Positions 44,336 through 47,267 of a DNA stretch of 64,000 bases are shown here, piece by piece (within the stretch, counting starts at the first letter, position 1; each line of letters opens with the position of its first letter). Source of the DNA: Promethearchaeota archaeon (lineage in GTDB: Archaea; Asgardarchaeota; Lokiarchaeia; Sigyniarchaeales; SOKP01); NCBI GenBank assembly GCA_048938855.1, contig JBHLLT010000009.1, forward strand, positions 1 to 64,000, written 5' to 3'. The translations under genes were made by a program, and so were the position numbers. The notes beneath the pieces are model-generated. The model was not told the origin of the DNA, did no database searches, and worked only from the letters and a program-made list of their open reading frames with translations.

Positions 44336-44674
44336 CTAAAAGTAATATTTTGAATCAAAACGGTATGCTGCTCTTGTTAATCCCACGTAATTATCATTTA
44401 GTTTATAAAGCATTTTTCCATTTACAATCTTTTTTTGTAGATAATTGTTTTTTATATAATGATTCAATGATGAAACCATGGTACCCAAAGTAACAGCCCC
44501 TATAAATTCATGTTGCTTTTTTGTAACTCTTATCAATTCTAACTCAGAATGCCACTGTCCATCTAGAAGTGCCATTAATATTTCATTTTTTATAGGAGTT
44601 GTGATATCTTTTATTTTATTAAATAAGTTAGAGTAGTTGGGTTTATAGAATGGATTTTCTTCAAAATCTTCCAT
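44336..44674 (-). CDS. Small winged-helix-like protein
   Basis: IKNEILMALLDGQWHSELEL...helix...YLQKKIVNGKMLYKL wing. Confidence 0.6.
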   Translation of the reverse strand: MEDFEENPFYKPNYSNLFNKIKDITTPIKNEILMALLDGQWHSELELIRVTKKQHEFIGAVTLGTMVSSLNHYIKNNYLQKKIVNGKMLYKLNDNYVGLTRAAYRFDSKYYF

Positions 44675-44792: not shown

Positions 44793-45914
44793 TTATAGTA
44801 AATTTGGTGGTATTCCTTCATTATAATATTTCGCACGTGTGATCCAATTTTGAGAAAATTCAGGGATCATTGCTAATATTGAACCACCAATCCAGACAGA
44901 AAAAGTTCGCTCCATTGGAGCAATAATCCGGACTCCAAGATTTTTCTTTTTCCTTCTAGCAAGTTCTAATTCTAACTCCTGATAAATACGAGCTTTTAAA
45001 TTCGGAAACATGGAGGAACCTCCTGAAAGAAAAATGTTGTTTAACAGTTCTGGACGAATGTCCAAATCACATGATTCAATTACATCCATGATTGCGACAT
45101 GTAATGAATCTTCTTCTAACTCAGAGGATGGTTTAAACAATAGTTCTGGAACAACAAATCGCTCTTTATTAAGTGAAATTGTAGAACCATCAGGTAAAGA
45201 ATATTCTTTTTCATATTGTTCACTGCGTTTTAAATCTTCATTATAATCTAATGAAACAAAGCATGCTTTTTCTTTTAAAACTCTAACCAATTCTCTGCGT
45301 ATTGAAGAATCAACAGACCATCCAATTGATTCCAACACTTGTTCCATATAACGAGTTAATACTCTTCCCCCTGTATCTAAGATCCTAACGGCATGCCCTA
45401 ATTTATATCCCTCATATAATGGAACTATTCTTGTATTACTATCCCCAATCTCTACAATTAGGCCAGTTTGGAAACCCCCAGAATATAATGTTAACATTGA
45501 ATCTAACACCGGATAAAAAGCCATACATTGATATCGTTCTAAAAATAATTCAAATATTTTTTCTAAATCTTTATGCGGAAATAACGGATGTACAGCAAAT
45601 AATACATTAACAAGTGTTGGATCCACTCTTAAATTATAAAAGATATAGTCAATTATATTTGCCAAATGAGTCCAATCTACTACAATTCCTTTCTCAATTG
45701 GATGGAAAATCTTATACAATCCGATTGATTGAATCTCATCTCCTACATAAGTCTCATCTTCACGAGACGCTTTACCACTATAATTAACACCAACATCTTG
45801 ATATTTAGGTTTACCAACCATTGTCAGGAATACTTGAGAGGGCGTATCTTCGCCTGCAAATCCAATTTTTGTTGAAAACTGCCCAATATCAAGAACAACT
45901 GTAAGATTTCCCAT
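44793..45914 (-). CDS. Actin-family protein (divergent Asgard actin / Arp-like)
   Basis: VVLDIG..STKIGFAGEDTP, HPIEKGIVVDW, TGLIVEIGD, VPLYEGY, KEKACFV, YSLPDG, ERF.VPELLFKP, LSGGSSMFP, SVWIGGSILA. Confidence 0.96.
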   Translation of the reverse strand: MGNLTVVLDIGQFSTKIGFAGEDTPSQVFLTMVGKPKYQDVGVNYSGKASREDETYVGDEIQSIGLYKIFHPIEKGIVVDWTHLANIIDYIFYNLRVDPTLVNVLFAVHPLFPHKDLEKIFELFLERYQCMAFYPVLDSMLTLYSGGFQTGLIVEIGDSNTRIVPLYEGYKLGHAVRILDTGGRVLTRYMEQVLESIGWSVDSSIRRELVRVLKEKACFVSLDYNEDLKRSEQYEKEYSLPDGSTISLNKERFVVPELLFKPSSELEEDSLHVAIMDVIESCDLDIRPELLNNIFLSGGSSMFPNLKARIYQELELELARRKKKNLGVRIIAPMERTFSVWIGGSILAMIPEFSQNWITRAKYYNEGIPPNLL

Positions 45915-46043
45915 GCCTAAAGATTTCAGAATTTAATTTATGATAATTACCCTAAATAACTATATCTAATATACTATTTTAATTTTTAAAAAATACTAAT
46001 AAAGCTTTGGGTAAAAATAAAAAGAATAAAAATCTTTAGGTTT

Positions 46044-46736
46044 TTATTCTCCTCTCATGATCTTCTTCAAACGATTTAACTCATCTAACATTTCATCTCG
46101 AAGAGAACTCAATCCTCCACCGGCTTTTGGAGCAACTCCGCCTGTTGCAGGTGCAGGAGCTGGTGCAGGAGGTCCGGGTCGTTTTGCAAATGCTGGCGCT
46201 GCTGGTGGTCCAGCACTTGGAGCTTTAGGGGGACCCGCGCCAGGAGGTGCACTGGGAAGCCCACCACTAGGTGGCAATTTTGGAGCCGGAGGTAAAGTAG
46301 GTTTTTTAGGTGGTCCACCACCACTTGGGGGCGCAGTAGGAGGCATTGCTTTTATCGGAGGCCCTGTACCAGGAGGTTTAGGAGCAGAAGGAGGCCCACC
46401 ACTTGGAGGTGCTGGGGCTGCGGGAATAGAAACAGTAGGCGCTGCAGTAGGAGTTGAAGTAGGTGTTCCACTACTTAATAAAGAGAATAAAGTACTAGCT
46501 GCGGCAGTCTTGGCAGTATCACTGCTTGGGGTGACTATTTTTTTAGAGGAAGTACTCACAGTTTGAACCTCTTCAACAACAGAGACTTCTTTCAAATCTT
46601 TTTGAGCTTTTGCCAATGATTTGATAAAATCATTTATTCCTTTTATTGTGTCCTCTAAATCATCAGATAGACTCGTGAGTCCTTTTTTCATAAAATTAAT
46701 TACGCGTTCAATCTTTTTCTGTTCTTTTGAAACCAC
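46044..46736 (-). CDS. Coiled-coil / proline-rich protein with C-terminal WH2-like motif
   Basis: N-terminal amphipathic helices, about 110-aa Pro/Ala/Gly tract with repeated PPSGG, C-terminal SSLRDEMLDELNRLKKI; GTG start after GAGG. Confidence 0.8.
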   Translation of the reverse strand: MVSKEQKKIERVINFMKKGLTSLSDDLEDTIKGINDFIKSLAKAQKDLKEVSVVEEVQTVSTSSKKIVTPSSDTAKTAAASTLFSLLSSGTPTSTPTAAPTVSIPAAPAPPSGGPPSAPKPPGTGPPIKAMPPTAPPSGGGPPKKPTLPPAPKLPPSGGLPSAPPGAGPPKAPSAGPPAAPAFAKRPGPPAPAPAPATGGVAPKAGGGLSSLRDEMLDELNRLKKIMRGE

Positions 46737-47000
46737 GTTCTTCTCAATTCCTCTAATGTTATTAAATAATTGATTAAAGTAAAAATTACTATTTATAATC
46801 TTTATATTTTTATTATATTAATATGTATTTATAATTTTATTCCATTCTTAATCAAGTCTATAAATCTAAATATTACGTAGATCTAGAAAAAACGTTAATT
46901 ATTAAAAAACCTAAACTAATAATATTATATAACATATTTCATTAGTAAGTTTAAAATTATTAATATTTCAATTTTAAGAAATTAAAAAGGTTTGTATAAA

Positions 47001-47267
47001 ATGCCTAAGCGTGAACTGTTCATTAAACGGGTTTATGAAATTGTTAATGAGCTTAAAATCCCCCTAATCGATGAAAGAGTTTATGACAGTGTTAAATTCA
47101 ATACAGGGGCAGCTGTTGCAGCTGTAATTTTCAGGTTTGAGGAAGATGAATCTGTAATCCGTGGATTTCTTGGTCTTGCTGAATATTTTCATACAGTTGT
47201 AATAAAGCGTAAGGATGAATTCTATATTCCCCACGCTTCCATTCTCTTCAGACTTATAAGTGCTTAG
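47001..47267 (+). CDS. Small hypothetical protein (start likely ATG 47001)
   Basis: 88-aa globular-looking ORF followed by T-rich terminator-like tract. Confidence 0.75.
   Translation: MPKRELFIKRVYEIVNELKIPLIDERVYDSVKFNTGAAVAAVIFRFEEDESVIRGFLGLAEYFHTVVIKRKDEFYIPHASILFRLISA

Follow-up and report, generated by a model that had tools for sequence, protein, structure and literature searches.

A near-universal Asgard protein with a proline-rich arm and a near-invariant C-terminal helix, encoded beside an actin-related gene, as a candidate tether for Lokiactin

The window analyzed here is a stretch of 64,000 nucleotides from a Promethearchaeota archaeon (contig JBHLLT010000009.1, positions 1 to 64,000). 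In it, a gene for a 230-aa protein with a GTG start (46044-46736, minus strand; PRP) lies directly upstream of a gene for an actin-related paralogue of 373 aa (44793-45914, minus strand; ACT2), on the same strand and across a gap of 129 nt, just as a sequence-only reading of this DNA had placed them. The parts which that reading had described in PRP were also recovered: an N-terminal heptad coiled coil (residues 2-54, 46575-46733), a short hydrophobic helix with a TLFSLL core (residues 72-88, 46473-46523), a disordered Pro/Gly/Ala spacer (46128-46451) and a conserved C-terminal amphipathic helix with the consensus LRxEMLxELxRLK (residues 209-227, 46056-46112), all on the minus strand. AlphaFold2 predicted the three helices at these residues and disorder in the tract between the second and the third. 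The T-tracts noticed in the gap (46013-46032, minus strand) start 11-30 nt past the PRP stop codon, and are likely an archaeal terminator that splits PRP from the actin transcript. Divergently from PRP lies the gene of a small conserved protein, UP91 (46992-47267, plus strand), while a 112-aa protein without Pfam match, a winged helix by eye, is encoded directly downstream of ACT2 (44336-44674, minus strand); the gene of the latter is conserved, and sometimes duplicated, beside ACT2 in the host's family.

The PRP gene is real and under strong purifying selection: of the changes in the last 24 codons of 25 family members, 220 are synonymous and 19 non-synonymous, and stops are present in every antisense frame. 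The motif LKK[IVT] alone is common, occurring in 236 of the 2,945 ORFs of the genome. The architecture of PRP is nonetheless not due to chance, since no other ORF of the genome has the helix-LK pattern at its C-terminus and the end helix hardly varies across 121 homologues. The invariant residues of the helix are L212, M216, E219 and R222.

The protein proved to be near-universal in Asgard archaea and hitherto undescribed. At least 198 close homologues were found, all unnamed, and a profile of the last 31 residues hit 254 of 301 Asgard genomes (82 of the 90 good ones), nearly always with one copy of the helix per genome. The helix is carried in 23 of 30 families, with Odinarchaeum, Harpocratesius, Promethearchaeum, Lokiarchaeum ossiferum, Helarchaeota, Thorarchaeota and Hermodarchaeota as named carriers. 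End helix and proline-rich arm are constant across the family, the end helix being the sole universal element, and the N-terminus comes in two forms, either a soluble coiled coil, as in the host, or a transmembrane helix with a helical hairpin, as in many other Asgard lineages; the short hydrophobic helix is kept in all members of the soluble type. Swapped anchors on a fixed tip are what would be expected of a tether presenting a docking helix. The N-terminal coil gave generic coiled-coil matches only, and a search of the ESM Atlas returned unnamed Asgard clusters only. In one family the PRP helix sits on a 570-aa multi-pass membrane protein (L053:3825-5537, plus strand) and also on a second, soluble protein (L253:835-1587, plus strand; genome G259).

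Scanning the genome for proline-rich proteins revealed a second pan-Asgard family, PRP2 (146 aa; C81:70143-70583, plus strand, L074:6144-6584), composed of a coiled coil, a GP6 run and an end helix related to that of PRP (hhalign 87%), and found with a single query in 188 of 301 Asgard genomes. The GP5-6 runs of PRP2 in the host's order attain polyproline lengths that PRP does not reach; there the gene usually follows one for a 209-aa all-helical protein with a weak F-BAR/FCH match (E = 0.31). Some members have poly-Asp tails, without Trp, and in several Asgard proteins a coil, proline arm and end helix of PRP2 type are fused C-terminally to Arf/Rag-like GTPases, one of them in this genome (C34:366198-367445, minus strand, L234), others being P0251, P0272, P0295, P0307 and P0311. 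Run against 1.8 billion representatives, the PRP2 profile retrieved PRP2-like proteins, GTPase fusions and repetitive coils, and no WASP-family protein was recognizable among the best matches listed. In MK-D1, the gene that comes directly after a putative gelsolin-X gene encodes a proline-rich protein of 697 aa in which a PRP2-type helix lies internally (L195:814-2907, plus strand).

The end of PRP had initially been taken for a WH2 motif, an identity that did not hold. The Pfam model PF02205 gave no match (E ≤ 10) in PRP, in 29 C-terminal peptides or in five genomes. WH2 is defined by an L-basic-basic-T/V motif after a helix (PMC9433394), and in 29 diverse members the tetrapeptide of PRP, far from being an invariant LKK signature, was LKKI in 9, LKKL in 5, LKKF in 4, LKAL in 3, IKEI in 2 and others in 6, with LREI among the variants and a T or V end in 0 of 29. 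In the AlphaFold2 model, which is that of the free protein, the helix 209-227 is continuous through the tetrapeptide with a pLDDT of ~90. WH2 domains have a helix break and a linker of about 4 or more residues ahead of the motif; the spacing in PRP is two residues. An R-x-x-L-L-x-x-I-type helix pattern resembling the start of the N-WASP WH2 helix is present by eye in the PRP tip, but when compared to the PRP and PRP2 family profiles the N-WASP WH2 repeats, confirmed from PDB 6UHC and 2VCP, ranked only within the top 9-35% of random windows. The lack of a PF02205 match, the variable LKK and the position of the motif inside a helix led us to reject PRP as a true WH2. LKKT-like actin motifs do exist in Asgard archaea, namely the WH2-like motifs of 2DGel proteins (PMC9433394), which are located after a gelsolin domain and take an extended course along actin, unlike the tetrapeptide of PRP, which is part of a helix and nowhere has T or V as its last residue.

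ACT2 is one of three actin-family genes in the genome and is not Lokiactin, being 40% identical to the Lokiactin of the genome (C79) and about equally far from eukaryotic actin. Its L. ossiferum orthologue, UYP44126.1, falls among the ARPs and is expressed less than Lokiactin; orthologues were found in the host's order only. The roles of Gln137, His161 and the phosphate loop are established in actin biochemistry; with the changes Q137>D and H161>R and an altered first phosphate loop, ACT2 is a catalytically altered paralogue, in which the residues of the barbed-end groove are mostly kept. As for its surroundings elsewhere, in L. ossiferum and MK-D1 the gene immediately upstream of the ACT2 orthologue, on the same strand, encodes a small-GTPase-like P-loop (L210:7726-8295 and L211:7280-7864, both minus strand). 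The third actin-family protein of the genome, of 506 aa, has two zinc-ribbon-like CxxC pairs inserted C-terminally (L003:934-2454, minus strand; G000:C34).

PRP and ACT2 are co-oriented and at most 2.2 kb apart in 58 of 60 genomes of the host's family; of the 58 adjacent pairs, 40 have a gap of 0.5-2.2 kb, which is occupied by a PIG-L-type deacetylase gene at those loci that were read. In the sister family the two genes are adjacent in 0 of 7 genomes (43 and 70 kb apart where they share a contig), and in L. ossiferum and MK-D1 they are separated by 272 kb and ~100 kb. Adjacency is confined to the host's family, and PRP-ACT2 is an old neighborhood and no obligate module. The original proposal of a true WH2 protein acting in a dedicated two-gene module with the adjacent ACT2 could build on this adjacency, on the helix start resembling that of N-WASP WH2 and on the groove residues kept in ACT2, but besides the WH2 tests it has to face a pan-Asgard PRP, present in ~20 families without ACT2, next to an ACT2 confined to one order, the separation of the pair outside the host's family, and the intervening deacetylase gene and T-tracts. 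We consider it very unlikely.

Of the WASP/VASP-like layout suggested from the sequence, the succession of an oligomerization or anchor module, a proline-rich spacer and a terminal helix is indeed conserved, while the family identity found no Pfam match. PRP shares with WASP, WAVE and WASH a putatively oligomerizing N-terminus, a proline-rich region and a terminal amphipathic helix in the same order, and the N-WASP C helix ranked in the top 5% against the PRP profile, this being one of several comparisons. Against the PRP2 profile the C helix of N-WASP scored better, among the top 1.6% of random windows and the top 2.3% of amphipathic ones and in full-length register, a likeness which is borderline given the number of comparisons. 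On the other hand, PRP differs from WASP, WAVE and WASH in having no WH2 match, no extended LKKT/V segment and no acidic Trp tail, as it ends three residues past the helix. It also lacks long polyproline: the prolines occur as PP, as already remarked from the sequence, the longest run being 2 in 112 of 120 homologues with a maximum of 4, and runs of a kind fit for profilin binding were found in PRP2 but in none of these 120. No homology to WHD or CCDC53 was detected beyond generic coiled-coil scores; CCDC53 gave E values of 0.012, 0.025 and 4.9e-4, below the cut-off and no better than generic coil families, and did not single out the PRP2 coil, which may be like HSPC300. Likewise, PRP resembles Ena/VASP in its proline-rich middle and C-terminal amphipathic helix, and host-order PRP2 in its GP5-6 runs, but it has no EVH1, GAB or FAB, Pfam gave no match for EVH1 or PF08776 (VASP tetramer), and the helix is about half as long. 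The comparison of the C-terminal end with WH2 and VASP profiles that had been suggested was thus negative, the PRP tip showing no profile similarity to WH2, the VASP tetramer or actin-bound peptides in Pfam and PDB, where the N- and C-terminal profiles of PRP as well as PRP2 matched generic coiled coils only. No test run here placed PRP in the WH2, WASP or Ena/VASP families.

Ena/VASP proteins end in an amphipathic tetramerization coil, and the end helix of PRP might similarly be a mere self-association coil, with the proline motifs as the functional part and PRP as a multivalent scaffold. An uninterrupted amphipathic helix whose hydrophobic residues form an i, i+3/4 stripe would suit this role, and the spacer does carry short conserved motifs (LPPAPKLPP at 148-156, PxFAKRP at 181-187). 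However, the helix is short for it, at 19 residues, neither the PF08776 nor the CCDC53 model picks it, PRP already possesses a 50-residue coil or a membrane anchor, and the surface residues R213, E219 and R222 are conserved like the core phylum-wide, beyond the usual need of a homo-coil; self-association as the sole role of the helix is hence quite improbable.

A helix present in so many Asgard genomes in single copy should have a partner that is pan-Asgard as well. Lokiactin is pan-Asgard (PMC9834061), as was also found in the genome comparison performed here, and within the host's family it remains 96-100% identical while ACT2 drifts to 62% and the PRP helix is near-invariant. Being both pan-Asgard and slow-evolving, Lokiactin is favored over ACT2, which is neither. 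The vicinity of PRP to an actin paralogue in the host's family and the borderline likeness of the paralogous PRP2 helix to the N-WASP C helix speak indirectly for an actin link too. An archaeal parallel is offered by arcadin-2 of Pyrobaculum calidifontis (PDB 5LY3), which binds the hydrophobic groove of crenactin through a conserved C-terminal helix on an unstructured linker (PMC5173319). PRP is similar in being archaeal, in carrying its terminal helix on a non-conserved linker and in having its gene near an actin-family gene, and dissimilar in its proline-rich arm, its coiled-coil or membrane anchors and its pan-Asgard spread, its binding being only proposed. The C-terminal profile of PRP did not retrieve 5LY3 (E ≤ 10), whose deposited peptide has 17 residues, in a search from which chains of <20 were left out.

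By analogy with arcadin-2 and with WH2 and C helices, we assign a probability of roughly 45% to the reading that PRP is a tether whose end helix docks in the barbed-end groove of Lokiactin. PRP would be an ancient Asgard adaptor, in which the N-terminal module either oligomerizes the protein (coiled coil) or fixes it in the membrane (transmembrane helix and hairpin), and the long disordered proline-rich arm presents a single amphipathic helix to a partner conserved phylum-wide. This partner would most likely be Lokiactin, with ACT2 as a secondary one at most, and the site would be the hydrophobic groove between subdomains 1 and 3, which arcadin-2, WH2 helices and the C helices of WASP proteins also occupy. 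Clustered in an oligomer or in a patch of membrane, the end helices could keep monomers or the barbed ends of filaments close to the membrane, and PRP would thereby act as a tether, a capper or a nucleator.

The families without the PRP helix (f19, 0/5; f22, 0/7; f8, f11 and f13) have the most divergent actin, with 51-69% identity vs. 69-78% in carriers, in a sample of few related, small or incomplete genomes. This co-loss would fit an actin partner, but it is confounded and may be explained by general divergence, since EF-1alpha scores are low in two of these families as well. Gelsolin gave no match in f19, f22 and f8, and none in Odin, where PRP is present; the Pfam model for profilin was too insensitive for a presence profile.

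Alternatively, the end helix may dock on another pan-Asgard protein of membrane remodeling or trafficking, the actin neighbor being incidental; the candidates would include the MIT domain of Vps4, an ESCRT-I-like complex, a small GTPase, a BAR-like protein, UP91 and PRP2. The transmembrane helix and hairpin of the anchored members, and of these only, look by eye like CdvA/Steadiness-box/SHOCT modules (for the context of the CdvA/Steadiness-box family see PMC11188069), with a weak SHOCT match, yet these members have no Pfam CdvA or VPS28 match. The fusion of the PRP2 module to Arf/Rag GTPases and the usual place of PRP2 behind the gene with the weak FCH match also point toward trafficking. Some 6 kb separate PRP2 from the ESCRT cluster of Odinarchaeum, and some 10 kb separate PRP from the ESCRT-III genes of genome G038, but unrelated genes intervene; moreover ESCRT-III is retained in the helix-lacking families f22, f8 and f11, and the leucine spacing of PRP does not fit the MIM1 motif. 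UP91, a very conserved alpha/beta protein of 88-91 aa whose model (pLDDT 90) gave no fold match (best Z 4.4), recurs beside PRP in more distant lineages than ACT2 does, which would suit a partner other than actin, but in L. ossiferum and MK-D1 it is away from PRP and ~10 kb from ACT2. Overall, docking on a trafficking protein seems possible but on balance somewhat unlikely.

The published co-immunoprecipitation (co-IP) of Lokiactin from L. ossiferum (bioRxiv 10.1101/2025.11.30.690169; PMC13716822; PRIDE PXD068820, with the proteome in PXD074767) might have informed on the Lokiactin tether. PRP of this organism is an ORF of 271 aa and 26.8 kDa (CP104013, complement of 729367-730182; L183:10001-10816, plus strand), but the protein deposited in its place, UYP44328.1 (NEF87_000613, L. 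ossiferum B35), is an antisense ORF of 230 aa labeled collagen-like (L183:10111-10803, minus strand). The slot, between UYP44327 and purA (UYP44329), corresponds to GNAMCCOK_00620, an offset checked by the mass of a neighbor, and this identifier is absent among the proteome and co-IP rows listed. Because the identifiers of the paper track the annotation with the antisense ORF, the true PRP was most likely missing from the search database and the co-IP is silent on it; we accordingly rejected the co-IP table as either support or refutation for PRP. Neither the MK-D1 nor the G038 sequence of PRP had an exact counterpart in the protein collection, and similar miscalls may be common. PRP2, in slot GNAMCCOK_02219 according to positional mapping and a neighbor mass check, is abundant in all 16 proteome columns and not among the enriched co-IP rows listed, which speaks against PRP2 and Lokiactin forming a stable complex, although in that experiment a profilin and two BAR proteins likewise fell short of significance (PMC13716822). 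Among the enriched proteins is UYP44320 (GNAMCCOK_00612; log2 1.9, p = 0.001), the L. ossiferum copy of a coiled-coil protein that ends in a zinc-ribbon like the gelsolin X domain (L208:6411-7403, minus strand; G000:C45:99372-100304, plus strand), and which is missing from the paper's table of named proteins.

On a wider scale, it could be imagined that the last Asgard common ancestor possessed two paralogous proto-NPFs, PRP and PRP2, clustering Lokiactin or ARPs at membranes under the control of Arf/Rag GTPases, and that the WH2/C helices of eukaryotes and the small coiled-coil subunits of WAVE and WASH derive from them; we regard this scenario as speculative and probably incorrect in this form. 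New in the present analysis are the phylum-wide count of PRP, the PRP2 paralogue with its GTPase fusions, the co-loss profile together with its confound, and the wrong-strand annotation. PRP was overlooked partly for a technical reason, the wrong-strand gene call in the cultured model L. ossiferum, and this same call makes the question of a PRP-actin link testable with existing public mass-spectrometry data. Profilins and gelsolins are regarded as the mainstay of actin regulation in Asgard archaea (PMC13716822), and in our literature searches neither a nucleator nor a membrane tether of Asgard actin came up. Near-universal, single-copy, anchored and provided with an invariant putative docking helix, PRP is a strong candidate for the missing actin link or for another core function.
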